IMG/VR virus record: IMGVR_UViG_3300025326_000008
DNA from: a virus
DNA: 37,515 nucleotides
Strand: one strand, 5' to 3'
Shown here: positions 1,588 to 33,007 of the stretch, in pieces
Layout of the letters: each line of letters starts with the position of its first letter
How positions within the stretch are numbered: position 1 is the first letter of the stretch
Made by a program: the position numbers and the translations under genes
Notes under the pieces: generated by a model
What the model saw: the letters and a program-made list of their open reading frames with translations, nothing else
Databases searched by the model: none
What the model was told of the DNA's origin: nothing

Positions 1588-1593
1588 GAAGAT

Positions 1594-9362: not shown

Positions 9363-9367
9363 ACATA

Positions 9368-10093: not shown

Positions 10094-10105
10094 GTTCAAG
10101 CCAAT

Positions 10106-13200: not shown

Positions 13201-14197
13201 TTTCTTTGATAAATGGTTTAAGTGCTCCGTATATATTCCCCACCACTTTACTTGCACCAGCAAATCCTATTTCAGAAGCGGAACCAAAAGCTATATTTTG
13301 AGCTATATACTTTTCTCTGTCTTTTTCGGGTAAATCTCCCAATGACATTAAAAGTCCCTCAATTCCACCTTTGGCTGCAAGAGATCCAACCTTAAACCAA
13401 TTGCTCATATTTTTGGTTAGATTTAGTAATTTTGTTGTTTCTCCGAATATCTTTGTATTAGTTGGATTCTTTACAAATCCAATCATGTTTCCTGCCGTTA
13501 CTAACGGATCAAACTCCATACCCAATATTTTTATATTCCTTTGTGGTACATTGGGAGATTCGATATCACCCATTCCTTGTGTTACACCGGAAGCGACTCG
13601 TCTAAGTGTGTCCGATGATGCAATTTGCGGTTGATTGACAACAAAGTTTGCACCCTGGTACAGAGGACTTGCCACCGCAGCAAAATTTCCTATACCATAG
13701 GCAGCTTTGGCCAGACCTTGTACAACCTTACCCTTGTCATTGGTTTTAATACCCGTTCCAATTAGATTTCCGGCATCTATCATCTTATTAGCACTACCCA
13801 TACCCGTTCTAAATGAATTTGTAAACATACCAGCCATACCTTGAACTCCAGCTATCGGGACATTGACAATCGGTTGTATGTATTTTTGTAGAGGTTGAGG
13901 TGTTATTTGTTGCACGCCCGACCTTAGATAGTTTCCGAAAGCTGTTGGTAATTGGGGAATTGCATTTTGTACTCTCTGGATACCACCCTCAATTCCACCA
14001 GGTGTTGCTCTGTCTAAATTTCCCCAAAAGTTGTTTCCGTTATTGGAAGTGGGATTAAAATAGGGGTGTTGTACCACCTTTTTTACTGAGTTATATGCAT
14101 TAACAGGAGGAATTAAATTAAAAGCCGTCCCACCAACAGTCTGTACACCCTGTTGAAGTCTCTTTTTTAATTCGTCTGCGATGTCTTTAAGTGTCAT
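10241..14197 (-). CDS. Giant virion protein (1318 aa), internal/ejection-protein-like
   Basis: Single long ORF between the Q-rich protein and the tail genes, as in podovirus internal-core modules. No catalytic motif recognised. Confidence 0.5.
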   Translation of the reverse strand: MTLKDIADELKKRLQQGVQTVGGTAFNLIPPVNAYNSVKKVVQHPYFNPTSNNGNNFWGNLDRATPGGIEGGIQRVQNAIPQLPTAFGNYLRSGVQQITPQPLQKYIQPIVNVPIAGVQGMAGMFTNSFRTGMGSANKMIDAGNLIGTGIKTNDKGKVVQGLAKAAYGIGNFAAVASPLYQGANFVVNQPQIASSDTLRRVASGVTQGMGDIESPNVPQRNIKILGMEFDPLVTAGNMIGFVKNPTNTKIFGETTKLLNLTKNMSNWFKVGSLAAKGGIEGLLMSLGDLPEKDREKYIAQNIAFGSASEIGFAGASKVVGNIYGALKPFIKETGEATIKYTRNALGQFAKILSELKGKFPSEVNMSGKDIKFNEVSDSKYERGFIDVEEIGKSLGLVKDPTQPVKPVSVPQDIIPQKTYSAVPTEAGLKKLKLQQERAAKITANNDYKEWQKTLFAQEGATRTPYMQSKANVEDIGKSISKNTKVGGVGAEDLKDISGFKAYTRDVYRNFKEVYGKGFENIKRVLLDPFDQAKGNLSRNYANWSKRINKEIEIDLGIKKGSKESAATQMFGEDKLTYEEIVQQFGQKKADNIVKADQWFRKEYDQLLDEVNAVMKRIYPNNPEKLIPKRQDYYRHFREMSRGISGLLNIFDSPANIKSSLAGTSEFTKPKSKWLSFAQKRLGGQTDVDAVGGFIDYVKAAEYSKNIDPFTSKFGALADDLAKQTEADPKLNGFIEYLHDFSRDLAGKTNPADRFIQKVIPGGRKAMSVINWLNNRVKANVILGNASSSLAQIFNVPQGIADAGPGNSIKGLGYTIANIFDEATPIKKSNFITERYGSGAFDRFDRGMINNTRKFAAWMVTVLDNVGTKYIWNSEYAKALSNKVPNPIKFADDATRGMVAGRGIGEVPLIQKSKVFQMVAPFQLEVANLWHVMGDWVGEKQFGKLATFFAASYVFNRTAEKIRGSDVSLDPIQASIDAYNAYKEEEDKKIGLMRAGGRLAGEVISNVPLGQSLAAAYPEYGAKVGDTQLPTREQFFGKGDPTRFGSGLLVTKGLQDPLFKILPPFAGQQIKRSIEGIGATEKGYSESATGKVRFPTEQTPLRNIQRAVFGQYSTPEAREYFDTNTSVLGDKQSETYKKLLKTDPAKAQQYYDSVLEARKKDKPKTTNTKSNGIEVNAAESGESVSGGNISYVKDGELIEVDLDKSFEYPTFDKSTAIGKEAISRYKSGISTQVNKIYDAYEAGAITQEVASEKINALSIAYDKTKAPKKAKKGKKITVKFTKSKVPTITLKRRAAPKLPTIKFKKPKITKSTIRRYTIK

Positions 14198-14209: not shown

Positions 14210-15433
14210 CTATAAGCCAGCCAGTCGCTTTAGCTCATCCTCTACTGAGGCGTTAGTTCCACCAAATTTAGCTGTCGATGTTCCTGCGGGAGCAAACTGA
14301 GGCGTTCCTGTGATCTGCCCGTATTGCTGTTGTGGGGCCGTGTAAGCTCCAATTCCTGCCATGTTTTGTTTGAGTTGCGCCAAGTTTGTAGCGTTACTCA
14401 TAGCCCAGCTCTCAAGGGATGCCTGTCGTTGAGCTGTTTGATTCTGAATAGCTGTAAGTTTCGTGATGGCTGCCTGGTAGAGATTGGTTGTAAGACTCTG
14501 TAAATCTTGAGACTTAGATAGTTGACCCTGAGCTTTGGCTGTTTGTAATTGCTGTTGTGCTGAGGCAAACCAATCGGCTATCTGACCGATTCTTGTATCT
14601 CTTTCACCTGCGAGTCTATTTTTCTCCTGCATATAGATATTGTTTAATTTAGAACCTCTGTCGGCTATATCACTTAATATTGAGGCTGTTTGGGCTTGAA
14701 CATCTCCTCTTTGCTGGCTTCCTAGTTTAGTAAGTCCGTAAGCATATTGATTAACTGCCGAAGAGTCTCCAGCCCCCATTGATCCAAGATAGGTATTTCC
14801 GGCATTCATCAAGTTTCGAATGTTTGAGGAAATGTCTTTTAAGGTCTTGACTTGGTTGGTTTGGGTCTTACCTGCCTGAATATCAAGATCGGCTTGGTTT
14901 TGATCTTTTTGAAGTCCTAAATCTGTTACATTGGTATTGTAGGAAGTGTTAGCTATTCCTTCTTGGGCTGTTTTCTGCCCTGGGAGGCTGGTATTGAGCA
15001 TATTATCCAATTCACCGAAGTAGTTTGAATATCCACCCTCGATTTGCTGTCTCATAATGTCTTCGTAAGAAGGGCCAGAAGAACCCTCTCTTTGTTTGGC
15101 TTCCCAATCAGCCTGTGCGGCAACTGGATCCCAACCTTTATATTGATCAGATGGGAACGCACCCGTGTTTGTCGGGGCGGGATTTGCTGGAGGATTCGAG
15201 GTGTTTTCACCTAAAACTTGCGGGGTGCTTGCGTAGGTATTAAGGTAGCTCTGTTGCTGTGTAGGGTTCATCTGATATGTCCCCGTTTTGTTGAGATCTG
15301 CTGTAGCTGGATTTTGATACTGATCCATAACCAAATCCGACCCTCCCGAACTATATCGAGTAAAGCCGAGTAGGTCTGAAATCCTTTCGGTTATTCCGAA
15401 ATCTGGTGTTCCCCATGATCCTGTATGTGACAT
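14210..15433 (-). CDS. Q/N/T-rich coiled-coil virion protein (407 aa)
   Basis: ORF track. Low-complexity Q-rich helical C-terminal half. Lies directly upstream of the 1318-aa gene. A TATAAG box (15445..15440) sits 6 nt upstream of the ATG. Confidence 0.5.
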   Translation of the reverse strand: MSHTGSWGTPDFGITERISDLLGFTRYSSGGSDLVMDQYQNPATADLNKTGTYQMNPTQQQSYLNTYASTPQVLGENTSNPPANPAPTNTGAFPSDQYKGWDPVAAQADWEAKQREGSSGPSYEDIMRQQIEGGYSNYFGELDNMLNTSLPGQKTAQEGIANTSYNTNVTDLGLQKDQNQADLDIQAGKTQTNQVKTLKDISSNIRNLMNAGNTYLGSMGAGDSSAVNQYAYGLTKLGSQQRGDVQAQTASILSDIADRGSKLNNIYMQEKNRLAGERDTRIGQIADWFASAQQQLQTAKAQGQLSKSQDLQSLTTNLYQAAITKLTAIQNQTAQRQASLESWAMSNATNLAQLKQNMAGIGAYTAPQQQYGQITGTPQFAPAGTSTAKFGGTNASVEDELKRLAGL

Positions 15434-15455
15434 ATTTGACTTATAGTGTTATAAT
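15427..15455 (+). promoter_or_regulatory. Plus-strand sigma70-like promoter with extended -10, 6 nt from the ATG (leaderless candidate)
   Basis: GTGACA (15427-15432), 17-nt spacer ending TGT, TATAAT (15450-15455), then taactt and ATG (15462). Confidence 0.5.
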
Positions 15456-15461
15456 TAACTT

Positions 15462-15668
15462 ATGATTAAAGCCTTTTTAGTCGGTCTTTATTATCTTGGT
15501 TTGGCATTCTACCTTTGGTTTTACTTTGCTAACCAGGGAATGGAATTTGCGGATAATTTCAGAGCTAATACCAATAAGGTGTTTATTCTTGTGGTAATAA
15601 TTCCTAATATCGTTCTATTCTTATTCCTTTTAAGGTATCTAAAATCCAAACTCACTTCTCCTCATTGA
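15462..15668 (+). CDS. Small two-TM membrane protein (68 aa), the only convincing plus-strand gene
   Basis: ORF track: LVGLYYLGLAFYLWFYF and VFILVVIIPNIVLFLFLL. It has its own promoter. The caveat is that AT-rich antisense sequence can mimic hydrophobic ORFs. Confidence 0.5.
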   Translation: MIKAFLVGLYYLGLAFYLWFYFANQGMEFADNFRANTNKVFILVVIIPNIVLFLFLLRYLKSKLTSPH

Positions 15669-15946
15669 GGCTTCGCCTCAGGGGAGTCCGTCTACAAACT
15701 GCTTACCTAGCCATCCTCCCTTCACTTCCCTCTTCTCTCTATTCCGTATTCTTAAGCGTTACGCTTGAAGTTTCCGTTTTTAGATTAAGTCGGTCGTTTG
15801 GTCGGCCTGATACCTCATCTACTATCAGGTGTAGCCTTCTAGACTTGCGATCTAGTTGGAATTCCTTAAGGTCGATTTGCGGCCGCATCTCGATTAGGTA
15901 AGTTCGTTTTTACGGAACTCCAACTAAACAACAAGTTTTAACCAAT
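15669..15946 (-). ncRNA. Candidate structured RNA or long structured leader (minus strand inferred)
   Basis: No ORF of 60 aa or more looks protein-like here. Visibly more GC-rich than its surroundings. Hairpins: 15806..15829 (7 bp), 15839..15855 (loop is GCAA on the minus strand), 15667..15679. A 12-bp long-range helix, 15854..15865 with 15914..15925, is complete only on the minus strand (G-U versus A-C). Confidence 0.35.
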
Positions 15947-15973
15947 AAAAAAACCACCCAAACAATCGGGTGG
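15947..15973 (-). terminator. Intrinsic terminator of cassette A
   Basis: Minus strand: ccaccc-gattgttt-gggtgg followed by U7. Confidence 0.65.
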
Positions 15974-16014
15974 CCCTCCGTGCGTAAATACGCACTAAAC
16001 TAGCCTATGAATAA

Positions 16015-16043
16015 TATATATCATTTCTCACTTTTGTTGTCAA
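16015..16043 (-). promoter_or_regulatory. Promoter of cassette A (extended -10)
   Basis: Minus strand: TTGACA (16043..16038), 17-nt spacer ending aaaTGA, TATATA (16020..16015). The TGA is also the stop codon of the glycosyltransferase gene. The leader hairpin gtgcgt-attt-acgcac lies at 15980..15995. Confidence 0.55.
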
Positions 16044-17160
16044 GTATTCCCCTAAAATAGTTAGCGTACTTATCCACATTGGCCTGCATGGTGTGATTCT
16101 CTTTAATATATTTATACGCCTCCTCTGCCATCTCTTTGCCTTTATCCGGATTCTCTATTAAATATGAAAGGTGGTTAACCCAATCTTCGGTACTCGAAGC
16201 TAGTAGCCCTCTTTCAGGATGGTTGGCTAGAACGTCATTGTAAGGGTCGATCCTTTCCATAATACAAGGTGTTTTACTTGCGGAGTATTCTAAGTATTTA
16301 ATATACGACTTCGCACGACTGTAATTGCTCCATGTTAAAGGTGCGACATATATATCGCACTCACTAGCCATATTGGGCCACACTTCGTCAATAAACCTAT
16401 ATACGTTGTACCTTCCTAGGGTGTACTTATACTTGTACCCAAATAAGGCTTTGAGTTGTGGCATATAGAAAGTAGTCTTGAATCTTACTTGCGGGTACTT
16501 GTCCATGATTATTCTCATAGCTTTAGTGAATTCGGGTTTGTTTACATCGGGATAATGTGAGGCCCCTCCTATATAGCCTATGGTTATTTCATCTGTTTTA
16601 ACCTTAGGTGGGATCTTCTTAAAATCATACTTAGTCAGGTCAACGTAATTAGGAAGGACGGTAATGTCTTTAATCGGTCTTTGGGTGTGTTCTACAATCT
16701 TGTATTTTAGAAAAGGATTTGTTGTAGTGAGGGAGTCTGCGTCTAAGATAATCGCAGTTCTGTTAAATAGCTTCTCACTACCTGGTTCATAATCCCCTTT
16801 GTAATAAGGGTGTGTGGGATCGACCGCCCAGATATTATCGTCTAAGTCTAAAGCTACTTTCATTCCGTACTTCATCCCTTGCACCCTTAACTCAAGATAG
16901 AACTTAACCGAGTCTGCGTATGAGAAATACATAATGTCGTAGTATTTGGACAGATCCTCGGTATTCGTAAACTTACTCGTCTTTCCACCTACTAGCTCGT
17001 AGGATATATCTACCTCAAATTCATCCTTGGGTAAGTAGGTTAGAGGGCTAATAGTTCTAGCGTAATCAACTCCACCTACATACATAATTTCTTGACCGGT
17101 ACTTTGGTTGGTTTTTAACTTGAAATTAGTCAGTGATCCTAATACTTTTATTTTCTTCAT
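16021..17160 (-). CDS. Glycosyltransferase, GT-B fold (GT1/GT4-like), 379 aa
   Basis: C-terminal half resembles the Glycos_transf_1 region (DIYVAPL...YIKYLEYSASKTPCIM). Start chosen at MKKIKVLGS (ATG 17160), giving an ATGA overlap with the upstream methyltransferase. The track ORF extends to 17193. Confidence 0.7.
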   Translation of the reverse strand: MKKIKVLGSLTNFKLKTNQSTGQEIMYVGGVDYARTISPLTYLPKDEFEVDISYELVGGKTSKFTNTEDLSKYYDIMYFSYADSVKFYLELRVQGMKYGMKVALDLDDNIWAVDPTHPYYKGDYEPGSEKLFNRTAIILDADSLTTTNPFLKYKIVEHTQRPIKDITVLPNYVDLTKYDFKKIPPKVKTDEITIGYIGGASHYPDVNKPEFTKAMRIIMDKYPQVRFKTTFYMPQLKALFGYKYKYTLGRYNVYRFIDEVWPNMASECDIYVAPLTWSNYSRAKSYIKYLEYSASKTPCIMERIDPYNDVLANHPERGLLASSTEDWVNHLSYLIENPDKGKEMAEEAYKYIKENHTMQANVDKYANYFRGILDNKSEK

Positions 17161-17615
17161 GATACCTTGCGGAGGGTGAGGTGGCACTCCCACGGGAATC
17201 TGTCCCTGTCCATTCCTATAATTTCAAACTTACACTTGGTCATACAATGTCCTCCGAATGCTTTGTCTGTAAAGTAACCGAAAAACACATCCGCCTGTTC
17301 TGGGATGTATTTAACATGGGTCGGATCTAAGAATGCGTGGGGATGGGGTAAAGTGGGAACTCGAATATCCAACACTCCACCTATCTTCAGAAACGAGCCT
17401 AATTGCTCCATCAAAGCTACTGTATCTTGGAAATGCTCTACAAAATGATGGGCGAATACTGCGTCGTATAAATAAGGAGGCTTGAAGTCAAATACCGAAC
17501 ACAACCACTTTTGTCCGTGATCTATATTGTCTAATCCCTCAGTATTAGGAATCCACCTAGTTATATCAGAACACCCTACGTTTAATGCTCGGTTTACTTC
17601 AATTTTCTTTTCCAT
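17157..17615 (-). CDS. Class I SAM-dependent methyltransferase-like protein (152 aa)
   Basis: ALNVGCS (motif I-like) and YDAVFAHHFVEHFQDTVALMEQLGSFLKIGGVLDI, a Methyltransf_11-like pattern. Confidence 0.6.
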   Translation of the reverse strand: MEKKIEVNRALNVGCSDITRWIPNTEGLDNIDHGQKWLCSVFDFKPPYLYDAVFAHHFVEHFQDTVALMEQLGSFLKIGGVLDIRVPTLPHPHAFLDPTHVKYIPEQADVFFGYFTDKAFGGHCMTKCKFEIIGMDRDRFPWECHLTLRKVS

Positions 17616-18495
17616 AGATAGTTTTTAGAATCTCTTTAACCGGATCGCCTGGATAGTTCAAACATTCTTTTCTAAACCACTCACGATCCTTTTTATTTAA
17701 GTCGGGATCTTTGATACAGAGTTCTATTTGTTTATTAAGCGACTCTAAAGGGACTTGAATAGCTGCGGGACTGATTTGGCTTATAAACTCTTCTCTTGTG
17801 TAAGTCTTACCTAATAGATCCTTTTGAGTCCAGTTATCAACTGAAATATAGGGGATGTCCATTAAGTGAGTCAAAGCTCCGAAAGTCCCCTCTCCTATCC
17901 CCACAACCACGTCCGCCCAACTTAAGGTGTGGAAACAAGTATCTATGTGGTTTAGCCCCTGTCTGTCAGTTGAGAGAGGGCGAGGGTAATCGGCAGGGTT
18001 ATTCTCGCCTTCCAAAAGTTTGCTGAATACGTCATATTTACATTCTTTAAGTTCGGCGGCTACTTCTAGATTCTCTTGAAGTTCTCTATCCCAATGTCTG
18101 GGTGCAAACAATACACGCTTGTCTTTATGTTCCCGTCTTGGAATTATCTTTTTTGTTAAAAGTGTTCCCGTAACCACAACTTTTTCTTTAGGAATGCCCG
18201 CTTTTACCAGCCAGCTTTTTGTCCAATTACCCCAAGCCATGAACGTATCCGCAATCAAAGGTCTATTAAGAGGTGGAATATAATCGTTTATAGAGAGAAG
18301 TCCGTGTTCGGCTACTATCACACGCTTGCCGAGCATCTTAGCCTGAACTGCTATTTCTTCCATGTTCCCTATAACATCCTGCCACATAACTAGCGTGTCG
18401 GCTTCGTGCCAGTCTTGTACTAGATCACCTGTTTTATGAAGTTCATTAACCAACTCGTCTAAAATACCATTAAAGTTAAATAATGTTATTTTCAC
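17599..18495 (-). CDS. Putative sugar or sugar-phosphate transferase, family not recognised (298 aa)
   Basis: Embedded in the sugar island. Two-Rossmann-like layout guessed from alternating hydrophobic and charged blocks. GTG start with GTGA overlap. The functional call is weak. Confidence 0.3.
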   Translation of the reverse strand: MKITLFNFNGILDELVNELHKTGDLVQDWHEADTLVMWQDVIGNMEEIAVQAKMLGKRVIVAEHGLLSINDYIPPLNRPLIADTFMAWGNWTKSWLVKAGIPKEKVVVTGTLLTKKIIPRREHKDKRVLFAPRHWDRELQENLEVAAELKECKYDVFSKLLEGENNPADYPRPLSTDRQGLNHIDTCFHTLSWADVVVGIGEGTFGALTHLMDIPYISVDNWTQKDLLGKTYTREEFISQISPAAIQVPLESLNKQIELCIKDPDLNKKDREWFRKECLNYPGDPVKEILKTIYGKEN

Positions 18496-19175
18496 TTCCT
18501 CTCCTTCCCCTCACTGCCCATCATAATCTCATATTTAAGTTCGGCCATCTTCCAATCTTCGGGGGAATCCACATCCTGACTCTCGGACTCTTTAACTATT
18601 AAAGGAATTGACTTTGAAAGGAACAAAACCCTCTCTTTTAAAAGTGCATCGGTTTTTAATAAATAAAATTGGCCCACATCGTGGTATCTTGGTTCGAAGT
18701 CTTGAGTGTTGTGGTGGTAGGCTTCGTAATCAACTATTTTGACAAGTCCATCGTCTATGTGAACCGACCTTTGGGGGGGATAGCCATACTGAACCATCGG
18801 GAACACCCCATTTCCTTGTTTAATTAACTCAAATGCTTCGTTTAAGAGTTTGGGTGTAGCAAATACCGCCGTGGCGTGTAGCATTAAACAGTATTCAGGT
18901 TCAATCCAATTACGTTGGATATAATCTAAGAGTACTTCCGTAGTGGTCGTCCTATCGTCAGCTAAGTGTGCGGGTCTATCATCTACTTCAGCCCCATATT
19001 TTCTAGCTACTTCGGCTATCTCCCCGTCTTCAGTAGAAACAATCGGAGTAATACCTAGCTCTTTCAGATAACGGATAGGATACGAGATAATTGGTTGTCC
19101 ACAAAACTCCTTGATATTTTTTCTTGGAAGCCTGACGGAGCCCCCTCTCGCCGGTATAAACGCAAGTGTTTTCAT
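18492..19175 (-). CDS. Cytidylyltransferase of the CMP-NeuAc/CMP-pseudaminic/CMP-Kdo synthetase family (227 aa)
   Basis: N-terminal signature LAFIPARGGSVRLPRKNIKEFCGQPIISYPI, then VSTEDGEIAEVARKYGAEV and RPAHLADDRTTT. This is typical of acylneuraminate cytidylyltransferase-like enzymes. Confidence 0.8.
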   Translation of the reverse strand: MKTLAFIPARGGSVRLPRKNIKEFCGQPIISYPIRYLKELGITPIVSTEDGEIAEVARKYGAEVDDRPAHLADDRTTTTEVLLDYIQRNWIEPEYCLMLHATAVFATPKLLNEAFELIKQGNGVFPMVQYGYPPQRSVHIDDGLVKIVDYEAYHHNTQDFEPRYHDVGQFYLLKTDALLKERVLFLSKSIPLIVKESESQDVDSPEDWKMAELKYEIMMGSEGKERK

Positions 19176-19963
19176 GGTTGTCTCCTTAATTTCGGTTCTT
19201 TACTATTTATCTCACCGTTTAGATATCTTTTAACAATATCGTTGTTGTAAATATTATATATCATTCTTAAATGTTGTGGTTTGAAGTCGCTTTCAAGGAA
19301 GTTCTTTCCCCCCTCCGGCTTTTGTGGGTATTTTATCCAGTCGGGGTACATTTTAAGTAGTCTACAAGCTTCCTTAGTCGATTCTAACACGTTTTTACAG
19401 GCAACATCATGTATCCCATCATCTTTGTCTAGTTTTGGTGTTACTTGATGGATAATGTCTCCTCCATCGGGTGTATCGACGATGTAATGAAACGTTGTAC
19501 CCGCCCAATTTGGTTCTAACATATAAAAAGGCCAGAATAGAGTAGCCGCACCCCTGTAACGTGGTGATAAGCCCAAGTGTAGGTTAATTGTGTCTTTTGG
19601 AAGCGCCGACATTAAAGGTTCCCTAATCATTCCCGATCCAAATACTAAAACTATATCCGGCATTATGTTTTCCATGAAATCAACGCTGTTTAATGAGTTG
19701 AGTTCTTCTTTGTTTACCTTGAGTAGCGGAAACTTAGGATCTTCTTGTTTACCAAAGTATTTCTCCTCGGCCTGTAATCTATCCCAGAAGTGTCTTGTCC
19801 AGTTACTCTTATCCTTAGCATCTGCGCTAGCTTCAATCGTAGGAACGGCATTTCCTCTGGTCTGCATAATTCCACCCATAACGGGGAACTCTTTAGCAAT
19901 CTCGTTTATATAGTAAAGGTGTCTGGGTTGATCTCCGCCCACCCAGCCGATTCTCTCACTCAC
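19172..19963 (-). CDS. Formyltransferase-domain protein (263 aa)
   Basis: INLHLGLSPRYRGAATLFWPFY and DTPDGGDIIHQ resemble the Formyl_trans_N core (N.H.SLLP.YRG ... D.G.II.Q). GTG start with GTGA overlap. Confidence 0.7.
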   Translation of the reverse strand: MSERIGWVGGDQPRHLYYINEIAKEFPVMGGIMQTRGNAVPTIEASADAKDKSNWTRHFWDRLQAEEKYFGKQEDPKFPLLKVNKEELNSLNSVDFMENIMPDIVLVFGSGMIREPLMSALPKDTINLHLGLSPRYRGAATLFWPFYMLEPNWAGTTFHYIVDTPDGGDIIHQVTPKLDKDDGIHDVACKNVLESTKEACRLLKMYPDWIKYPQKPEGGKNFLESDFKPQHLRMIYNIYNNDIVKRYLNGEINSKEPKLRRQP

Positions 19964-21162
19964 TTAATTAAACCCTCCTTTTTAAGCAACTCCGATGTTT
20001 TGATTAAATCACCCATCGATATACCGGTACTCTCGGCAATGTCTAATAGAGACTTACCCGAATTGAACATCACTGTAAGTATATTCTCCGTACTCTTGTC
20101 GTTCTGGTTGTTTCCTCCGAGTGTCGGATATAGTTCACGTTTGGAAAGCATGGGTTCACATGACGGATTAAGGCTCTCGATAACATTGTCACCTTCTATT
20201 GCCTCGATCATTCTTTTAGCACTCTCAAGCGTCTTCTGATAATCGACTTTAAAGTATTCTCTGTCTAATGAAGTATGGTAGTACGAACCATAAAGTCCGC
20301 CCTTATTTAAGATAATTGTCGGTATCCTAAATGCGGGAGAAGATAATTGTCTTTCATCACTACCTCTTACACTAAACGGAGTGCCTTGTTTGCCTGTTGC
20401 CTGTCGGGCTATCCTATCCATATATGAATTACCCAAAAAGGATTGTTTAAAACCAACTGGTTCAGATATCGTACCCACAACATGACTCAGTACAACCGCA
20501 CCTCTGACGTTGGATACATCGTGTGTCGCTAAGTAAGATATCATTCCTATTGTTTCGGGGGCAATTATAAATCTATAAGTATGTTTCGTTTTACCCATAC
20601 TTGCGAGCAAATCAGCCCACAATGCCATTCCGGCTACGTTATCGTTAATCATGCTTGGGTGGCAACAATACGTTGAGATAATATATTCGTCTTCATCACC
20701 CTCTATAATTTTCTCTCCATAAGTCATTGAACCATCTTTAAACTCCGAGTCTATCCTGGCATGATACATAAGTTTGGGGTTCATATTCTTGTAAGAGTCT
20801 CCGTCTACGCAAAATCCCCAATCCTTTTTATAGTAAGAAGTTCTATAAGGTATTCCGTGAGCAAAATCACTCTTGTATAAATGAAGTTTCAACTCATCGT
20901 ATTCCATATTTTTCTCTATTGGCTCACTGTAGGACACAACGTGGAGAAAATCCTTTTTATAGTCAGCCCACACCTTACCGGTTTCGTCTGACAACACTGC
21001 ATCTCTTATTACCCACTCTTGCGGAATCGTCCAGTCAAACACTTTAGTTCCTGAAGGAATCTCGTGTATATCAAAGTCTGCTTTCTCTCGTAGGATGTCT
21101 AGGCTCTTGCGAACCCCGTCTCCTGTGATACTGCGGTCTATCTGCATTAAGCGTTCTATCAT
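19960..21162 (-). CDS. Aminopeptidase-like domain protein of the COG4310 (DUF2172/DUF4910) type with a C-terminal winged-helix-like tail (400 aa)
   Basis: RSITGDGVRKSL, PSGTKVFDWTIPQEW and YCCHPSMINDNVAGMA resemble the family commonly found in polysaccharide and glycosylation loci. Confidence 0.7.
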   Translation of the reverse strand: MIERLMQIDRSITGDGVRKSLDILREKADFDIHEIPSGTKVFDWTIPQEWVIRDAVLSDETGKVWADYKKDFLHVVSYSEPIEKNMEYDELKLHLYKSDFAHGIPYRTSYYKKDWGFCVDGDSYKNMNPKLMYHARIDSEFKDGSMTYGEKIIEGDEDEYIISTYCCHPSMINDNVAGMALWADLLASMGKTKHTYRFIIAPETIGMISYLATHDVSNVRGAVVLSHVVGTISEPVGFKQSFLGNSYMDRIARQATGKQGTPFSVRGSDERQLSSPAFRIPTIILNKGGLYGSYYHTSLDREYFKVDYQKTLESAKRMIEAIEGDNVIESLNPSCEPMLSKRELYPTLGGNNQNDKSTENILTVMFNSGKSLLDIAESTGISMGDLIKTSELLKKEGLIK

Positions 21163-21755
21163 TAGATCATTTCAGTTATCGGTTGAACCCTCATCACTTC
21201 TTTGTTTCTTTTAACGTCAATCGGGAAGTCCTCTAAATCCTTACTTTCCCAATACTGCAACGCTTCTTCCATTTGTTTGAGGTTCTTAAACTCATCTTTG
21301 GGTGTAGTTATCTCGAAGTACTGGTCAACCCCTCTGGGAGCTGCGAATAGCCCAAACGGAGTTCCTAATTCAACATCCCCTATTCTTTTGGCGTACTCTA
21401 ATTCTTGCCATGTGTTAGGGGGCATCTTCTCATCAAAGAAACCTACCTTTTCTACCGCTTTACGGGTAAACATTGAAAATGAAGACACAAAGTCTGTATA
21501 GTATTGAATGTATCTATCCTCATCGAATCCTATGCGTTTATTTATTCCCCCTCTGGCCCACATTAACGCATGAATACCTGTAGCTTCTGAAGTTTCTATG
21601 AATTTCTCGTAAACTTGGTCGTCTAAGACTTTGCAGTTATCCTCGACTAAAAAGAAGTAATCTTTGTCTGTTTTAAGCATTTCACGCAGAGCTTTGTTTT
21701 TCTCTTTTGCTATATCCCCCGAAAGAGAGATTGTTTTGGTGCAGTATTTAAGCAT
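21162..21755 (-). CDS. GT-A (GT2-like) glycosyltransferase-like protein (197 aa)
   Basis: DYFFLVEDNCKV (DxD-like) and FSMFTRKAVEKVGFFDE (GT2-like). The ATG directly follows the U-tract of terminator C. Confidence 0.5.
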   Translation of the reverse strand: MLKYCTKTISLSGDIAKEKNKALREMLKTDKDYFFLVEDNCKVLDDQVYEKFIETSEATGIHALMWARGGINKRIGFDEDRYIQYYTDFVSSFSMFTRKAVEKVGFFDEKMPPNTWQELEYAKRIGDVELGTPFGLFAAPRGVDQYFEITTPKDEFKNLKQMEEALQYWESKDLEDFPIDVKRNKEVMRVQPITEMI

Positions 21756-21786
21756 AAAAAAAGCCCACGTCCCTTCAGACGTGAGC
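21756..21786 (-). terminator. Intrinsic terminator of cassette C
   Basis: Minus strand: gctcacgtc-tgaagg-gacgtgggc (9 bp, one G-U valid only on the minus strand), followed by U7 and immediately ATG 21755. Confidence 0.7.
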
Positions 21787-21833
21787 CCGATCTACAAATG
21801 GATCAAGACCCTTAAATTAACCTATCAGGTCGC

Positions 21834-21842
21834 ATTATATCA
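21834..21842 (-). promoter_or_regulatory. Extended -10 element of cassette C (weak -35)
   Basis: Minus strand: TGATATAAT. The hexamer at the 17-nt spacing is TATATA, a poor -35 match. Confidence 0.4.
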
Positions 21843-21868
21843 CAACCAGACAAGGATATATAGAGGGT

Positions 21869-23332
21869 CTAAAGAGCTAGGATGAGGCTTTCGCTTATTT
21901 TATAGAAGACTTTACCTTTTGTATTGATCACCAATCTACTTACGCCACCACTAGAAATCGACGGTGTAGGTTGACTACTTACTAAACTGATAACACCCGG
22001 GGATACAGTAACATACCTTACTGTATCGACCGTTGGTGATGGTTGTGTTCCAATTAAACTCTGTACACCTACACTTATTGTCTTATCTCCGCCCATTGAG
22101 ACATCGGGAGAGAAACTTGTAAAAGTAAGTGTTTGAACATCGGGACTTACACTTACGCTCTCAGTGGCTGTTATATTTGCCGTTGGTTGGCTAAATGTCG
22201 CACTTTGAGCACTAGGAGAGGTTGTAACGTCTGCTCCAGTTAAAACTTGTGGGCTGATTTGACTAAGTGTTCCAGACTGAACATTAGGACTTACTGTTTT
22301 ATCTGCCGTTGCAGTAACTGTCGGACTAGCTGTACTAAAGGTAGCCGATTGGACTGTCGGGCTTACTGTCGGGTTCTTAGTTGTTGTTATTGTAGGACTA
22401 ACTTGAGAAAAGGTAGCTGATTGAATGCCTGCACTTACTCCGTCCCCTACTGTAATCTGAATACTTTGTTGACTAAAGGTTGCGCCCTGAACGGCTGGGG
22501 AGACTGTAACACTTTTAAGGGCTGTAATCGTTGGGGCTGGTTGAGAAAACGTACTAGATTGTACCGAAGGGCTAACTGTTTTGTTGGCTGTTACTGTAAC
22601 CGTTGCTGCTGGTTGACTACCTGTTAAGGTTTGTACTCCTGCGTTTACTGTTACATTGGTAACAGAATTGGGCATTATCTGAAATCCAATTACTCCAACG
22701 GGATCGTTTGCTGTTGAAATCGTACCTCCTGTAACAGTCCCAGGGTTAGCAGTAGGGGTGCAGGTTTGAAGTCCTAATTGTGAGTCTGGGGTGGTGGCAC
22801 TCTGGGCATATTCGGCAACCGCCTCAGTCCAATCTCCACCTGACTCACCCGTAGCACTAACCAATCCGTTATCGTCTGCCTGAAAAATACAAGCAACAGC
22901 TAACGCACCGACAGTTGTTGTGGTTACAGTTGGAAAGGCTGGGTCAGTGGCATGATATTGGTGGGCAAAACTACCCGAAGGAACAATTTGACTAATCGTT
23001 CCAGAGGTTCTTCCACTAAAGCTATAAATCCTTCCGGTACGCATTGTGGTAACTGCAGGAGTGCCGAAAGATATTGCGTCGCTATCTTCATCACCAATAG
23101 CTATTTTTCCAAATATCCAATGCTTATAAAGGTTTGCCCCCATCACATACCCATCGGTTGTTAAGAGAGTCCAGTCTGCGGGGGTTGATGGGGTAGTCGC
23201 CACGCCCTCATAAGCTACATGGGCAATTAAAACATCCCCAGCGTCAACCGTCGCTGGACAAGTTGGGTTTAAGTCTCCACTACTCGCTTCAGTAGTTACA
23301 CCATTCCCCTCACCTTTATATGCGACGGCCAT
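21869..23332 (-). CDS. Ser/Thr-rich tandem-repeat virion protein, fibre or decoration-like (487 aa)
   Basis: A globular N-terminal region of about 230 aa, then about ten repeats of 23-24 aa (consensus roughly TVSPxVQSATFSQPxPTITxxxx), then a short C-terminal tail. Confidence 0.6.
   Translation of the reverse strand: MAVAYKGEGNGVTTEASSGDLNPTCPATVDAGDVLIAHVAYEGVATTPSTPADWTLLTTDGYVMGANLYKHWIFGKIAIGDEDSDAISFGTPAVTTMRTGRIYSFSGRTSGTISQIVPSGSFAHQYHATDPAFPTVTTTTVGALAVACIFQADDNGLVSATGESGGDWTEAVAEYAQSATTPDSQLGLQTCTPTANPGTVTGGTISTANDPVGVIGFQIMPNSVTNVTVNAGVQTLTGSQPAATVTVTANKTVSPSVQSSTFSQPAPTITALKSVTVSPAVQGATFSQQSIQITVGDGVSAGIQSATFSQVSPTITTTKNPTVSPTVQSATFSTASPTVTATADKTVSPNVQSGTLSQISPQVLTGADVTTSPSAQSATFSQPTANITATESVSVSPDVQTLTFTSFSPDVSMGGDKTISVGVQSLIGTQPSPTVDTVRYVTVSPGVISLVSSQPTPSISSGGVSRLVINTKGKVFYKISESLILAL
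21953..22640 (-). repeat. About ten diverged tandem coding repeats of roughly 69-72 nt
   Basis: Seen in translation: TVSPSVQSSTFSQPAPTITALKS, VTVSPAVQGATFSQQSIQITVGDG, TVSPTVQSATFSTASPTVTATADK, TVSPNVQSGTLSQISPQVLTGADV, and so on. Boundaries are approximate. Confidence 0.7.
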
Positions 23333-23413: not shown

Positions 23414-23956
23414 TTATTGGAAGTTAAGTATTTTAAGAAGTTCGTCGTAGTTTATTTCTTCCTTACATCTAGGACACTTTACTTTAAAATCTTTACTTCT
23501 AACTCCATCTAAATGTCTCGTTGTCCAGAGTTCTAGATTTTCAATTCTATTATCGGATTTATTACCATTTATATGGTGTATTTTTTCCCAAGGTAGTAAA
23601 TATCTACCTAGTTCCTTCTCCATTACTAAACGGTGCTCAAAAACATATTTACCACCGACAGCGTTCGGATGTGTTGGAACGTGCACTTTTCTATATCCTT
23701 TAAAGTTGATTTTTCCACCACTCCAGTTGTAATGTTTGTATCCTTTTATCCCATATCTTTCGGGATTGTATTTTCCCGCACATTTTTTGGAACAAAAGTT
23801 ACCAAACAAACCCTGACTCATTCGAGAGGGAACAACTGTATATTTTTTACTACAATATTTACATTCCCTCTCTACGAGCCGAGTGTGCCATCCGGTTACT
23901 CTATTAACGAGCCACCATTGTCCAAAGGAATCTTTTTCTTTTATATACTTTGTCAT
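23414..23956 (-). CDS. HNH homing endonuclease (HNH_3-like), paralog of 1090..1587
   Basis: FEHRLVMEKELGRYLLPWEKIHHINGNKSDNRIENLELW, plus CKYCSKK, FCSKKC and a C-terminal CPRCKEE. Confidence 0.85.
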   Translation of the reverse strand: MTKYIKEKDSFGQWWLVNRVTGWHTRLVERECKYCSKKYTVVPSRMSQGLFGNFCSKKCAGKYNPERYGIKGYKHYNWSGGKINFKGYRKVHVPTHPNAVGGKYVFEHRLVMEKELGRYLLPWEKIHHINGNKSDNRIENLELWTTRHLDGVRSKDFKVKCPRCKEEINYDELLKILNFQ

Positions 23957-24003: not shown

Positions 24004-24417
24004 CTAATTCAAATTTATGATCCCCTCTGAGTTCCAACTCACGGTAAATGTTCCACTTGAACTTACTTGGTATGAACCAAAATCAAAGTAACAAATCAAA
24101 GCCGATGCGGCTGTTGTGTCGTATAGAACTGCTCCATACGCTGAAAGTGAAGACGAAGCCCATATAACATCTGCTCCATCCCACACACCCTCGTCTCCTC
24201 CGTTATCTTGTGAGACTGAGAGTCCTGACAATGCTCTTCCACCTGCTGTATAACCTGTTCCGGTTATTTGGCCTGAAACATCTGAGATCTTTTTGTGAGT
24301 ATCAATGTTTGGTGTGTAGGCTTGATAGACCAACATCACTTTAACTGAATCATTATCGAGATCCATGTCTCCGTTCATTATCTGCTTCTTAAAACTGTTG
24401 TAAATTGCGTTTGCCAT
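24004..24417 (-). CDS. Hypothetical virion-module protein (137 aa)
   Basis: ORF track. AGGAAGGA SD-like motif about 12 nt upstream of the ATG. Lies in the head-tail region. Confidence 0.5.
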   Translation of the reverse strand: MANAIYNSFKKQIMNGDMDLDNDSVKVMLVYQAYTPNIDTHKKISDVSGQITGTGYTAGGRALSGLSVSQDNGGDEGVWDGADVIWASSSLSAYGAVLYDTTAASALICYFDFGSYQVSSSGTFTVSWNSEGIINLN

Positions 24418-25871: not shown

Positions 25872-26789
25872 TTAAGCCGACCTAAAGCTGTAGCCCCAAG
25901 TCGAGTTAAGAACCTTTGCTACATACGAACCAGCCCATGCAATATCAACCCACCTTCCGGTGACGTTGTTAGAGTCGGGGCCAGAAACGATATATAACTT
26001 TGGTTGATCCCCTTCTAAATCATAAGCACCGAATGAATCGGCACCATGAATGAAGTTGTAGTAGGTCGTAACGGTTGAGGATGAGCCTGTTCCAACTGCC
26101 GACATTTTGTTTGTCGAGAGCAAGAATCTAACTCCATGAACCTCTCCGATCTCACCATTGTACAAATCTTTCGGATCTGTGTACTGTCTGACTCCCAGCC
26201 ATGTAGAGTCGGCCATAAGTCCTGTCTTAGACACCGGTTGCACTTTCCCGATGTAAAATCCATCTGGATAGCGTTGAGCCTTTGCTGATTCAAGATTCTG
26301 TACGACTGTTCTAACGTCTGTTAAGTCCAGTGTGTCTGATGTTTTGATAGATGACGCTTTTTTGCTATTCGCAAAGCCGGCTGTAAAGCCTGCCGATAGA
26401 GCGTTACCCGTGAGTCTGTCGATGGTTTCACCCATGTTTTGACCCAAAACCTCTATATTCTCTGCATTGTTTTTATCAATGCCCACTAAGGTCAAGAATT
26501 TAGAAATCTTCCCACGATTTCCGTACTCAGCGAGAGTACATGAAACTGCGGAACCTTCCATCAAAGACACTGCTGGGTTTGCACCTTCCGAAAGTGCTGT
26601 GGTCGCCAAACTCATTGGAGTCTTTCTGTTAAAGACAATGCTCTTTCCAGAGTTTTTCCCATGAGTAGACTTCTGCGCACCTTCTGACAATACTATGCTT
26701 GCCTTTGCTCTTTTGAGAAAGATCTTCTCATAATACGTCATCACTTCGGTTGATAAATCACCAGTTGTTCTGTTTAATGCTTCTGCCAT
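25872..26789 (-). CDS. Major capsid protein (HK97-fold, N4-gp56-like pattern), 305 aa
   Basis: Lies after the scaffold gene. The N-terminal pattern YYEKIFLKRAKASIVLSEGAQKSTHGKNSGKSIVFNR resembles this capsid family. Size is typical. Confidence 0.7.
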   Translation of the reverse strand: MAEALNRTTGDLSTEVMTYYEKIFLKRAKASIVLSEGAQKSTHGKNSGKSIVFNRKTPMSLATTALSEGANPAVSLMEGSAVSCTLAEYGNRGKISKFLTLVGIDKNNAENIEVLGQNMGETIDRLTGNALSAGFTAGFANSKKASSIKTSDTLDLTDVRTVVQNLESAKAQRYPDGFYIGKVQPVSKTGLMADSTWLGVRQYTDPKDLYNGEIGEVHGVRFLLSTNKMSAVGTGSSSTVTTYYNFIHGADSFGAYDLEGDQPKLYIVSGPDSNNVTGRWVDIAWAGSYVAKVLNSTWGYSFRSA

Positions 26790-28045: not shown

Positions 28046-28334
28046 CGAATTTAGAGACAAAGTTGTTTAATACAAACTTTGCCAACTCTTTGACCATTGT
28101 CCTTTGTCCGAGTTCTTCCATACTCAACCCTTGAGACATCGCCTCACTCACTAATTGATCTAAATATTCTTCAAGCCTCACTTTGTACGCTTTACCTAGC
28201 TCCCACCCTTTAAAGTGTGTTATATATGCTAGGGCCGATTGATCTCCGGTTAGGCCTTTTTCTTCACCTATCTCTTCGACCTTAGATGTAAACTCTTGAT
28301 AGAAATTTGGTTTTATTGCGCTTTTATCTTCCAT
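28017..28334 (-). CDS. Hypothetical protein (105 aa)
   Basis: ORF track. Overlaps the portal stop by 11 nt. Confidence 0.5.
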   Translation of the reverse strand: MEDKSAIKPNFYQEFTSKVEEIGEEKGLTGDQSALAYITHFKGWELGKAYKVRLEEYLDQLVSEAMSQGLSMEELGQRTMVKELAKFVLNNFVSKFDAARRAEEQ

Positions 28335-30482: not shown

Positions 30483-30677
30483 TCATCTCCTTTCATGGGT
30501 TATTATGGTTAGTTCTTGATACATGAATGATTCCAGTTGAACGTAATCCACTATATGCTTTCCATCTACTCTAATAACAAATGAATATAGTCCATCTTTC
30601 TTGTCCAGCATATCTCTAGCCATGTCGAGATAGACTTGTGTGTTGTGAGAACTTATTTCTTGTTTTACAGCCTCCAT
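30483..30677 (-). CDS. Hypothetical protein (64 aa)
   Basis: ORF track. 13-nt overlap with the upstream gene. Confidence 0.5.
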   Translation of the reverse strand: MEAVKQEISSHNTQVYLDMARDMLDKKDGLYSFVIRVDGKHIVDYVQLESFMYQELTIITHERR

Positions 30678-31309
30678 GTTTTGTCTAAATACTCCTTTTT
30701 GAACTTCTCCATGTCTGTAAAAAAGTTTGGTCTCTTGTCTCCGCCTTTTGAGTCGTGAACCATGACTATCGGCACTGTGAGTAGCTTGTAGCCCTTCTTA
30801 ATGAATTCTAACGATATGATGTGGTCGTAGAAGTCCCAGGTGGCGTAATCTTTGTCCGGTATCCCCACATCCTCTAATATCTTCTTTGTGGTTATCAAAC
30901 ACACTCCGTCTAAACTAACTACCTCACTAAATGGCCCGAATACACTTAATTCATTCCCCTTCTCTCCTTTGTGGAAGATCTGTCCTGATAATATGTGTCC
31001 TAAATATCTCTCTTGAGAAAACCACCAAGGTTGGTCTTTGTGTAGAACTGTCGTGCCGGCAGTCCCTATCATTCCCACTTTACCTTTTAAGTATTTAGCG
31101 GGGTCGGGAAATCCTATGAATTGAGTATCCTGGTGAGTAAAACATATATATTCTCCTTTAGCTTTAGCCACTCCTTTACGCCAAGCATCGAAGAATGAAG
31201 TGGCACCATATATCGGAATTAACTCAAACGGCATTCCTAGAGCCTCTAGTGAAGCCTTTAGTCTCTCAACTTGTTTTTTATCGGTTGTAGGGGTAATGAA
31301 TGAAATCAT
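30665..31309 (-). CDS. GT-A type glycosyltransferase-like protein (214 aa)
   Basis: ISFITPT..., then GEYICFTHQDTQF (DxD-equivalent region as in 'glycosyltransferase like family 2' proteins). ATGA overlap with the terL stop. Confidence 0.55.
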   Translation of the reverse strand: MISFITPTTDKKQVERLKASLEALGMPFELIPIYGATSFFDAWRKGVAKAKGEYICFTHQDTQFIGFPDPAKYLKGKVGMIGTAGTTVLHKDQPWWFSQERYLGHILSGQIFHKGEKGNELSVFGPFSEVVSLDGVCLITTKKILEDVGIPDKDYATWDFYDHIISLEFIKKGYKLLTVPIVMVHDSKGGDKRPNFFTDMEKFKKEYLDKTWRL

Positions 31310-32565: not shown

Positions 32566-33007
32566 TTTTAAAGTCTGAAAAAACTATCGTATTCGTTTCT
32601 ATCTTTTCGCCTAGTGAAGTAATATCTGTTTCGTTCTTATCTTTCCAATCAAAGTTATTCTTTGCATTAAATATAAGTCCAGGTGTGAAAGTGTGCTTTT
32701 CGTTCATTCTACTCTCAACATCTTCTTCAACTCTGTTTCTGGCTTCTTTTATAGTGAGCAGAAATTCGTCCTTATTTGCATAGTCAACCAGTGTTCTTCT
32801 ACTCATTCCCAATCGTCTTGCAAGTCCACTCATTGTATAAGGTGCCGGAGAACTTATCATTATCTCTGTCTTCTTTGTATCATCCCAGATCTTAACGGCA
32901 CGGTCTTCACACCATTGAAAATACTCGTCTATTATTATTTGCATATCTTCTGGTGTTTTATAAAAAGGAGGTCTACCTACTGGGTTTTTTGAAATCTTAT
33001 CGGGCAT
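32546..33007 (-). CDS. terS: Terminase small subunit (153 aa)
   Basis: GRPPFYKTPEDMQIIIDEYFQWC ... SGLARRLGMSRRTLVDYANK ... GLIFNAKNNFDWKDK matches the Terminase_2-like small-subunit pattern. Confidence 0.8.
   Translation of the reverse strand: MPDKISKNPVGRPPFYKTPEDMQIIIDEYFQWCEDRAVKIWDDTKKTEIMISSPAPYTMSGLARRLGMSRRTLVDYANKDEFLLTIKEARNRVEEDVESRMNEKHTFTPGLIFNAKNNFDWKDKNETDITSLGEKIETNTIVFSDFKNDSESK

Follow-up and report, generated by a model that had tools for sequence, protein, structure and literature searches.

A candidate nonulosonate tailoring, activation and glycosyltransfer cassette within the structural operon of an uncultured podovirus-like phage

In the mycobacteriophages Che8, Corndog and Myrna, virion proteins are glycosylated by glycosyltransferases (GTs) that the phages themselves encode (Freeman et al. 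2023, as summarised in PMC12363180). Here, we analyzed a viral DNA of 37,515 nucleotides (IMG/VR record IMGVR_UViG_3300025326_000008; this whole stretch is called the window below), which carries a seven-gene sugar island on the minus strand (21755-16021), preceded by a gene for a 487-amino-acid (aa) protein with Ser/Thr-rich repeats. To our knowledge, self-glycosylation of phage particles is documented only in a few mycobacteriophages and with simple sugars, and we know of no cultured phage that sugar-coats its own tail protein with a sialic-acid-like (pseudaminic-type) sugar; in mycobacteriophages, methyltransferases (MTs) reportedly occur alongside GTs in virion glycosylation. The window resembles the Che8, Corndog and Myrna systems in that GTs and an MT are encoded by the structural genes and a Ser/Thr-rich structural candidate substrate is present, the gene combination taken as a criterion of virion glycosylation. 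The mycobacteriophage system is found in sipho- and myoviruses of actinobacterial hosts, involves no nucleotide-sugar tailoring or cytidine monophosphate (CMP)-nonulosonate activation, and has been proven experimentally. In contrast, the candidate system of the window belongs to a podovirus lineage and contains seven to eight genes, including those of a CMP-pseudaminic acid synthetase (PseF), a formyltransferase (FT) and a DUF4910 protein. The best-supported reading, which we regard as about an even bet, is that the phage glycosylates its own virion with a pseudaminic-acid-type sugar through this late cassette.

Flagellin O-glycosylation islands of cells (Campylobacter, Helicobacter, Clostridium, Geobacillus; locus L043 in our set) share with the window PseF, N-acyl tailoring, DUF4910 and MTs, and their mode of action, the cytoplasmic O-glycosylation of Ser/Thr in a self-assembling filament protein, resembles the scheme proposed below for the phage. 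These islands contain the full set of PseB, C, H/J, G, I and F together with a Maf/MptE-like transferase; in contrast, the phage is without PseB, PseC, PseI and Maf, and has GT4/GT-A enzymes and a novel 2-epimerase-fold protein. Phage sugar genes also stand beside fibre or tailspike genes in lysogenic-conversion modules such as gtrABC (P22/SfV-type), prophage epaAB or the O-acetyltransferases that act on pseudaminic acid (Pse)/legionaminic acid (Leg) capsules in Acinetobacter, and such modules can act on nonulosonate-containing host glycans. However, these are membrane proteins or single prophage enzymes, whereas the enzymes of the window are soluble, encoded in a late operon without integrase, and combine activation with several GTs. 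Mimivirus fibrils and Vp54 of PBCV-1 illustrate how virus-encoded nucleotide-sugar tailoring, including N-acyl amino-sugar pathways, together with GTs decorates a virus's own particle; giant viruses and chloroviruses are eukaryotic systems with autonomous pathways, while the window is a 37-kb phage with a host-dependent partial pathway. Enzyme families and virion self-glycosylation are already known, and what is new is a nonulosonate tailoring, activation and transfer cassette inside a podovirus structural operon.

Together with the 487-aa gene, the island comprises eight minus-strand open reading frames (ORFs), whose coordinates are given with each gene below. The original prediction of seven contiguous, translationally coupled genes proved right in coordinates and in coupling: every junction overlaps, by 1, 4, 4, 4, 17 and 4 nt in gene order (the last by 37 nt if the GT4 gene starts at GTG), and several of the genes are preceded by Shine-Dalgarno-like sequences. 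Its placement of the island within the structural gene block was equally correct, with the major head protein and head-completion genes on one side and, on the tail-gene side, genes of a 407-aa, a 1318-aa and a SU10-adaptor-like protein. Two minus-strand, intrinsic-terminator-like hairpins followed by T runs bracket the island. One has a 12-bp stem (21761..21788) and separates the 487-aa gene from the first gene of the island; the other has a 14-bp stem (15948..15979), is located 42 nt past the GT4 stop codon and probably marks the end of the island transcription unit. The positions of these hairpins after the 487-aa gene and after the GT4 gene suggest that the island is a read-through unit within late transcription. 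None of the island proteins contains a transmembrane segment (Kyte-Doolittle maximum <1.3).

The 227-aa island protein (18492..19175, minus strand) matches PF02348 (6.9e-17) and, over its full length (4-216 / 1-221), the TIGR03584 PseF equivalog with 211.3 bits (cut-off 205.7; E = 1.4e-62), while its best solved relative is NeuA (PDB 9ftb, 7e-37). Residues 7-22, IPARGGSVRLPRKNIK, fit the N-terminal CTP-binding motif of the PseF/CMP-nonulosonate family, PARxGSKxxxxKN, and are aligned with IPARGGSKRIPRKNIK of NeuA 9ftb. By its sequence, the protein is a member of the CMP-nonulosonate synthetase family and specifically PseF-like. The earlier call of a CMP-nonulosonate- or CMP-Kdo-type (Kdo, 3-deoxy-D-manno-oct-2-ulosonic acid) cytidylyltransferase is sharpened by this equivalog match, and the concern that profile searches might place the protein outside the CMP-sugar synthetases is dispelled. 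Phage PseF proteins form their own clade (56-91% identity); cellular relatives are at most 47% identical and are annotated as pseudaminic acid cytidylyltransferases, e.g. in metagenome-assembled genomes of Lachnospiraceae and Peptostreptococcaceae, which places the nearest cellular PseF in Clostridia. One cellular homologue (P0302, locus L043) lies on a flagellin glycosylation island together with Maf, a PseB-like protein, an aminotransferase, NeuB, GT28 and flagellins. A PseF located elsewhere in the related phage L017 was also considered and rejected, since it was an artefact of two contigs of equal length, and the protein concerned, P0302, is encoded on this bacterial island.

The gene preceding PseF encodes a 263-aa sugar N-formyltransferase of ArnA-FT/PseJ-like type (19172..19963, minus strand). 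In agreement with the earlier FT-domain call, the protein scores 38 bits against PF00551 Formyl_trans_N (cut-off 26.1), and its triad N127, H129 and D166 is intact (N127-L-H129) and invariant across 9 phage orthologues; these residues align with N102, H104 and D140 of ArnA. The protein resembles PseJ/ArnA-type enzymes in the Formyl_trans_N core, the N-H-D triad, the PDB matches (ArnA, 9e-7; PseJ 6ci2, 3.5e-4) and the association with PseF. Unlike PseJ, to which its similarity is just at the level of that 3.5e-4 match, it is a member of a separate subfamily that nearly always occurs together with DUF4910. PseJ itself is the formyltransferase of the Pse5Ac7Fo route, and one PseF takes Pse5Ac7Fo as efficiently as Pse5Ac7Ac (PMC11040635).

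The partner of the FT is a 400-aa protein (19960..21162, minus strand) comprised of DUF4910 (1.3e-56), DUF2172 (2.2e-24) and HTH_47 (7.9e-12), which matches PDB 3k9t (2.3e-79) and has an aminopeptidase-like fold. This three-domain CA_C2195 architecture and the sugar-gene neighbourhood confirm the earlier description of an aminopeptidase-like protein typical of glycosylation islands. The FT subfamily was found in 59 bacterial and archaeal loci, the closest being those of Anaerolineales (53-60% identity), and the DUF4910 gene lies directly 5' of the FT homologue in 52 of the 58 cellular loci, with NeuB no more than 8 kb from the pair in 26 of them. These loci come from Anaerolineales, Planctomycetes, Pelagibacter, Prochlorococcus, Saccharibacteria, Nitrosopumilaceae, Haloarcula and others. 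DUF4910 and FT are a near-obligate gene pair, which extends the neighbourhood inference that the CA_C2195/DUF4910 family resides near sugar-modification genes (PMC4000134). Whether the two work as a functional pair from Pelagibacter and Prochlorococcus to Haloarcula and Nitrosopumilaceae is testable.

The 298-aa protein (17599..18495, minus strand), previously left as an unassigned transferase-like protein, has no sequence match in Pfam, NCBIfam or PDB. Its AlphaFold model, built from 30 sequences, has a predicted local distance difference test (pLDDT) score of 91.1, and the best Foldseek matches are UDP-GlcNAc 2-epimerases (E 7e-10, template modeling score 0.53-0.66), with GT-B transferases close behind; the fold search therefore supplies the missing assignment as a predicted GT-B-fold, UDP-GlcNAc-2-epimerase-like nucleoside diphosphate (NDP)-sugar enzyme. 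The hhalign alignment to E. coli WecB is weak (probability 1.4%); in it, the invariant WQD and EHGLLS segments stand opposite HGD (D95) and VEAGLR (E117), so that the invariant D40 and E63 face D95 and E117, and E131 has no equivalent. The family is small, with 64 clusters in a 5.8-billion-protein set, all on contigs of at most 43 kb, and 235 clusters in an exhaustive 1.84-billion search, and a pattern scan of 185,579 reference genomes returned no member. In P0313, P0314, P0387 and P0400 (675-1352 aa), the 298-aa domain is fused to Methyltransf_24, GT2 and GT4, echoing the 298-MT-GT4 gene order of the phage island, and one fused copy shows a marginal Epimerase_2 match (1e-3). The fold and the GT4 fusions suggest an NDP-sugar enzyme working with GT4, and for the GT4-298 pair an analogy to GtfA/GtfB (serine-rich-repeat proteins) was also considered. 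Its reaction may be that of a PseG/NeuC-like NDP-sugar hydrolase, a 2-epimerase or a transferase. Identity with true PseG (TIGR03590) was rejected, as there is no NCBIfam match and the Glyco_tran_28_C query from L043 has no tblastn match in the window.

The island opens with a short GT-A-like GT of 197 aa (21162..21755, minus strand; 172 aa from an internal start) and ends with a GT4-family (GT-B) GT (16021..17193, minus strand; 390 aa from GTG or 379 aa from the ATG at 17160), and both earlier transferase calls hold. The former matches phrog_2456 (2.1e-14) and phrog_1579 (1.9e-6), with no match in Pfam or in the PDB sequence search, and its orthologues (51-70% identity) open the island in L007, L017 and L035. 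It is without the first ~60 positions of phrog_2456, i.e. without the first beta-alpha-beta unit, and its annotated ATG (21755) touches the upstream terminator hairpin and has no Shine-Dalgarno sequence; some public gene calls use the 172-aa start. The GT4 exceeds the cut-off of PF13524 (29.4 bits versus 25), falls narrowly below those of PF13692 and PF00534, and matches phrog_7162 (1.5e-24); the PDB sequence search with the 390-aa protein gave no useful match. Its place at the end of the island is conserved, and in every locus with flanks it lies beside the 298-aa homologue. Between the 298-aa and GT4 genes, a 152-aa protein (17157..17615, minus strand) is a small putative S-adenosylmethionine (SAM) MT: it matches Methyltransf_12/23/11 at E 7e-4 to 6e-2, all under the Pfam cut-offs, so that the earlier MT call finds matching models and the assignment is weak, and its orthologues (42-68% identity) hold the equal position in relatives. 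Outside the reported island, an additional GT-A GT of 214 aa (30665..31309, minus strand; PF13712 Glyco_tranf_2_5, 1e-16, 61.8 bits versus 27) is encoded between large terminase and portal. Two other phages that carry a relative of the 487-aa protein, L046 and L106, have a Pfam GT2 gene in the same slot, with no tblastn-detectable homology to the 214-aa GT. Altogether, the phage appears to encode three to four soluble GTs, namely the 197-aa GT-A, the GT4, the 214-aa GT-A and possibly the 298-aa protein.

The candidate acceptor is the 487-aa minor-tail-like protein (21869..23332, minus strand), which consists of a conserved N-terminal beta domain (aa 1-~225, nt 22660-23332) and ten ~24-aa Ser/Thr-rich repeats (aa ~225-470, nt 21923-22660). 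The ten S/T-rich repeats described earlier for its C-terminal half are indeed present, nine of 24 aa and one of 22 aa, with 35% S+T; no DNA-level tandem repeat was found in the gene. The N-domain recurs with 40-87% identity in 133 phage proteins, and the 487-aa protein is the only window protein common to those otherwise unrelated phages. The C-termini of the family differ and include 20-25-aa repeats, FN3-like regions and LamG domains. In the structure model, the N-domain reaches a pLDDT of ~85 and the repeats appear as low-confidence beta strands. The N-domain model has 58 fold matches in BFVD at E<=1e-3, many of them actinophage 'minor tail protein' entries, so the fold search places it with the phage minor tail proteins; in PDB, the protein has no useful sequence match and no significant fold match. 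We infer that the 487-aa protein is a virion protein. Its C-terminal S+T fraction ranks second among 119 family members, and its version of the family repeat has S/T in place of G/F/A.

Sugar genes occur near the 487 family in five of the seven phage lineages, i.e. the window, L011, L044, L046 and L106, and none were found near the family gene in L013/L014 or L107. Specifically, L011 has an MT and a GT1 within about 4 kb of the family gene and a GT4-like gene after the major capsid protein (MCP); L046 and L106 have a TylF-MT and a GT9 downstream within about 4 kb, plus a GT2 in L046; L044 has a short-chain dehydrogenase/reductase, a pyruvyl transferase and an MT at 3-8 kb downstream. In L017, the closest relative of the window, a 1011-aa ORF (L017:4169-7204, plus strand) lies directly upstream of the island GT-A gene and encodes a LamG-like N-domain, an F5/8-type-C (discoidin) domain (5e-5) and two ~240-aa (SPSVSV)n tracts. 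This ORF is absent from the public gene call, which put three reverse-strand genes there. Homology of its N-domain to that of the 487-aa protein was rejected (hhalign probability 0.25%). Since the two proteins are unrelated, a Ser/Thr-rich fibre-like neighbour upstream of the island recurs non-homologously in the two closest phages.

We mapped related loci by BLAST and Pfam. The island lies between capsid and tail genes in all related phage lineages examined, so the linkage to structural genes stated in the original prediction holds throughout; relatives retain this position and the 298-GT4 core, with turnover among the tailoring genes. L017, whose MCP is 90% identical to that of the window, has the island order GT-A, PseB-like dehydratase (TIGR03589, 2e-99), HNH, FT, 298, MT and GT4, followed by the 407-aa homologue, a giant protein and the adaptor. 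L015 and L019-L021 have the order MCP, two small genes, PseB-like dehydratase, FT, 298, several MTs and GT4, followed by more MTs, a GH5-domain protein and the adaptor. The PseB-like dehydratases of L015 and L017 match TIGR03589 at about 1e-99 to 1e-101, and an extra MT of L015 matches the Pse-associated methylase TIGR03587 (5e-17). Window-type islands with DUF4910 and PseF were found in L007, L028, L035 and L038. In the more distant L022 and L024-L026, the 298-aa protein is 33-36% identical and the order is portal, head genes, GT4, 298, a 141-aa protein, DUF4910, cytidylyltransferase, GT2, NeuB+SAF (1.8e-74 in L025), LicD and adaptor. A deposited uncultured podovirus from Manatee Spring, MW202801.1 (L108, 19272-24303), has a comparable island, likewise flanked by MCP and tail genes, that encodes a radical-SAM/Fe-S oxidoreductase, a GT, a PhyH dioxygenase, an MT, a NodB-like deacetylase and a terminal GT4 that is 28.5% identical to the window GT4. 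The identities are mosaic, as the MCP of L007 is 64% but its PseF 90% identical to the window, and the MCP of L017 is 90% but its 298-aa protein 45% identical; this indicates that modules of the island have passed from phage to phage. In uncultured SU10-like podoviruses, the island is a trait of the whole lineage and hypervariable.

These assignments suggest the following pathway. Host PseB and PseC would make UDP-4-amino-4,6-dideoxy-AltNAc, which the phage FT together with the DUF4910 protein would N-formylate instead of the usual acetylation (the step of PseJ). The 298-aa enzyme would perform an NDP-releasing or epimerising, PseG/NeuC-like step, host PseI would condense the product with phosphoenolpyruvate, and phage PseF would generate the CMP-activated sugar, e.g. 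CMP-Pse5Ac7Fo. Finally, during assembly, the MT and the GTs would act in the cytoplasm to build the glycan on Ser/Thr residues of structural phage proteins. The foremost candidate acceptor is the 487-aa minor-tail-like protein, whose ten repeats are unusually Ser/Thr-rich for its family. While the family memberships come directly from the searches, we infer from them the substrate order, the sugar identity and the acceptor. By tblastn over the complete genome, no homologue of NeuB/PseI, PseB, PseC, PseG(GT28) or Maf was found, in accordance with the earlier remark that no NeuB/PseI-type synthase is visible. The late, terminator-bracketed position, the soluble enzymes and the lack of an integrase fit a cytoplasmic protein target. 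A virion target is further favored by the minor-tail fold and the S+T rank of the 487-aa protein, the sugar genes near its family, the (SPSVSV)n protein of L017 and the mycobacteriophage precedent; a Pse-type sugar is favored by the PseB-like and NeuB genes and the Pse-associated methylase of relatives, the flagellin islands that hold cellular PseF homologues, and the NeuB genes close to cellular DUF4910-FT pairs. Additionally, the turnover of PseB-like enzymes, NeuB, LicD, extra MTs, radical SAM and NodB-like proteins is what diversifying selection on a surface glycan would be expected to produce. The wider proposal, that an uncultured SU10-like podovirus lineage coats Ser/Thr-rich tail or decoration proteins with nonulosonic sugars, e.g. 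N-formyl-pseudaminic acid, via a rerouted host pathway, is put forward tentatively, on the doubtful side of even.

A number of points weigh against a virion target. As to the acceptor, the 24-aa repeat is a family-wide structural unit that is mostly G/F/A-rich (xGxGxxxFTGFAPTV in most members) and is predicted as beta strand rather than mucin-like coil; the earlier view of the repeats as an ideal O-glycosylation substrate keeps their S/T-richness in its favor but not the nature of the repeat. A 487 homologue was missing from each of the 12 other island-bearing loci checked, so the pairing of island and repeat protein is not obligatory, and in L007 the island stands one gene after the MCP with no repeat protein between. 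As to the sugar, PseF clears the TIGR03584 cut-off by only 5.6 bits and the PseB-like proteins of the relatives fall short of the TIGR03589 cut-off (333-338 bits versus 408), and because of this small margin and these sub-cut-off scores the possible sugars include related nonulosonates and di-N-acyl-trideoxyhexoses. As to the pathway, a Pse-making host would be needed for three steps since PseB, PseC and PseI are absent, a Maf-type pseudaminyltransferase is lacking from the complete genome in the tblastn search, and, given its fusions to MT-GT2-GT4, the 298-aa protein seems more likely to be a transferase, or an epimerase that supplies the donor, than to act as a hydrolase. The nearest cellular DUF4910-FT pair, from Anaerolineales, lies in a Wzy/Wzz/WecA-type surface-polysaccharide cluster without NeuB, and such polysaccharide contexts of the cellular homologues weigh against a virion target, while tail-fibre genes beside sugar genes fit host-receptor modification equally well. 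The self-decoration originally proposed is partly sustained, by PseF, the structural linkage, the minor-tail fold and the S/T-rich neighbour; the obligatory partner is missing, and adjacency speaks as much for a change of host receptor.

The main rival explanation is that the GTs and tailoring enzymes act on the host surface, i.e. on a lipid-linked repeat unit, a teichoic-type polymer, an S-layer or a flagellin glycan. The changed fibre receptor would block superinfection or keep progeny off debris, and the host flippase/polymerase would export the altered glycan. GT4 enzymes often use lipid-linked acceptors without having transmembrane segments, which would suit this explanation, as do the location of the DUF4910-FT pair and nearest homologues in Wzy/Wzz/WecA-type polysaccharide loci and that of PseF homologues in flagellin glycosylation islands. 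The temperate L046 and L106 have the 487-family fibre gene, then TylF-MT and GT9 (plus GT2), then an integrase, a classic seroconversion position, and prophage-encoded enzymes reportedly convert Pse in the Acinetobacter capsule (PMC12053666). However, the complete genome of the window has no integrase or repressor match, and the place of the island among the late structural genes, with a terminator ahead of it, would bring expression too late for the remodelling of an envelope that already exists. Neither Wzx, Wzy and WecA nor GtrA/B was found, the island encodes no flippase, polymerase, lipid-carrier transferase or membrane protein, and modification of the host surface would leave the fixed capsid-tail position in many lytic-looking relatives unexplained. 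We consider it rather unlikely, though the foremost of the alternatives.

Two further explanations carry less weight. The island might merely augment or redirect the host nonulosonate pool (formylated Pse), with unrelated GTs and no phage protein modified; the partial pathway with its host-dependent steps, the mosaic gene content that is exchangeable between relatives, and the PHROGs category of the island homologues, 'moron, auxiliary metabolic gene and host takeover', agree with such a metabolic boost. It is improbable in our view, because PseF and three to four transferases are encoded together and translationally coupled, as expected for a complete make-and-attach unit, the 298-GT4 core is kept in relatives and in other proteins even occurs as a fusion, and the structural-operon position is conserved. 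In DNA hypermodification, the GTs would put a CMP-activated acid sugar on a modified base of the phage DNA. Phage GT-B enzymes from metagenomic clusters do glycosylate 5-hydroxymethylcytosine with unusual sugars including Kdo and heptose, and one of these clusters includes a cytidylyltransferase (bioRxiv 10.1101/2023.12.21.572611). Nevertheless, no C5-methyltransferase, TET/5mYOX, dCMP/dUMP hydroxymethylase or DNA polymerase was found among the searched proteins of this complete genome, the island is in the late structural operon apart from the replication genes, and neighbours and relatives point to protein or polysaccharide glycosylation. The lack of a base-activating enzyme and the late position make this earlier alternative very improbable.

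A tblastn novelty search of 50,697 deposited phage records gave a single match for the phage PseF, in a record labelled Moritella viscosa, and none for DUF4910, the 298-aa protein or the 487 N-domain; NeuB was found only in two uncultured giant viruses and in the Moritella viscosa record. The near-absence of the island genes from these records implies that this biology is invisible in cultured collections, and a literature search on phage-encoded nonulosonate pathways returned nothing directly relevant. If the virion reading is true, the window would represent the first nonulosonate-decorated phage particle, and self-glycosylation would reach a class of glycans with a quite different chemistry and with immunological and ecological importance, as well as podoviruses that infect environmental bacteria, probably from anaerobic digesters or sediment. 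Rapid cassette turnover would create phage 'glycotypes', and virion glycans could influence host range, stability, aggregation and the recognition by grazers or immune systems; engineered phages might receive similar decoration. It would also provide the first functional handle on DUF4910, as an obligate FT partner, and on the 298-aa family, as a GT4 partner; that this orphan 2-epimerase-fold family works with GT4, to which it is sometimes fused, is likewise testable.

A 127-bp exact direct repeat at the window ends (1-127 and 37389-37515) indicates a complete genome of 37,388 bp, circularly assembled (or terminally redundant), of which the sugar island takes up about 15%. At least 22 contigs, recovered from several ENA and JGI metagenomes, contain the same phage (100% identity). 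No nucleotide similarity to deposited phages was detected, Rfam and tRNA scans of the window gave no matches, and family searches of most ORFs of at least 100 aa revealed no integrase, repressor, DNA polymerase or base-modifying enzyme. The substantial ORFs are all on the minus strand. The late genes follow the order small terminase (32546-33007), large terminase (31306-32565), 214-aa GT, portal (28324-30231), major head protein (25872-26789), four small head-completion genes, 137-aa phrog_644 protein, HNH endonuclease, 487-aa protein, the seven-gene island, the 407-aa (14210-15433) and 1318-aa (10241-14197) proteins, the SU10-adaptor-like protein (9368-10099), and more tail and lysis genes. 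For the major head protein, the Bacillus podoviruses Page and Pascal have a counterpart with ~28% identity, and relatives match the Pfam models of SU10/P22 portal, SU10 MCP and SU10 adaptor, which makes the 'podovirus-like' label of the original prediction reasonable. The 407-aa and 1318-aa proteins are without Pfam or PHROG match; the counterpart of the latter in L017 and L018 has 1621-1705 aa and weak matches to Acetyltransf_1 and LPD38.

Three HNH homing-endonuclease-like genes interrupt the structural region (23414-23956, 8787-9371 and 1090-1611, minus strand), one of them between the 137-aa and 487-aa genes; in relatives, HNH genes lie within the sugar island itself (L017:8716-9213, L011:12695-13234). 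The sole plausible plus-strand gene of the genome is a moron-like 68-aa ORF with two hydrophobic helices (15427-15668), located within the 587-bp gap 15434-16020 and preceded 5' by a near-consensus extended -10 sigma-70-like promoter (GTGACA-17-TATAAT with TG); the junction that holds it measures merely 40-100 bp in L017 and L037. The 137-aa phrog_644 protein (24004-24417, minus strand) precedes the 487-aa gene with the HNH insertion between, and in the unrelated phage L013 a 28%-identical homologue (L013:7978-8433) stands immediately before the 487-family gene; the 137-aa protein may be a functional partner of the 487-family protein.

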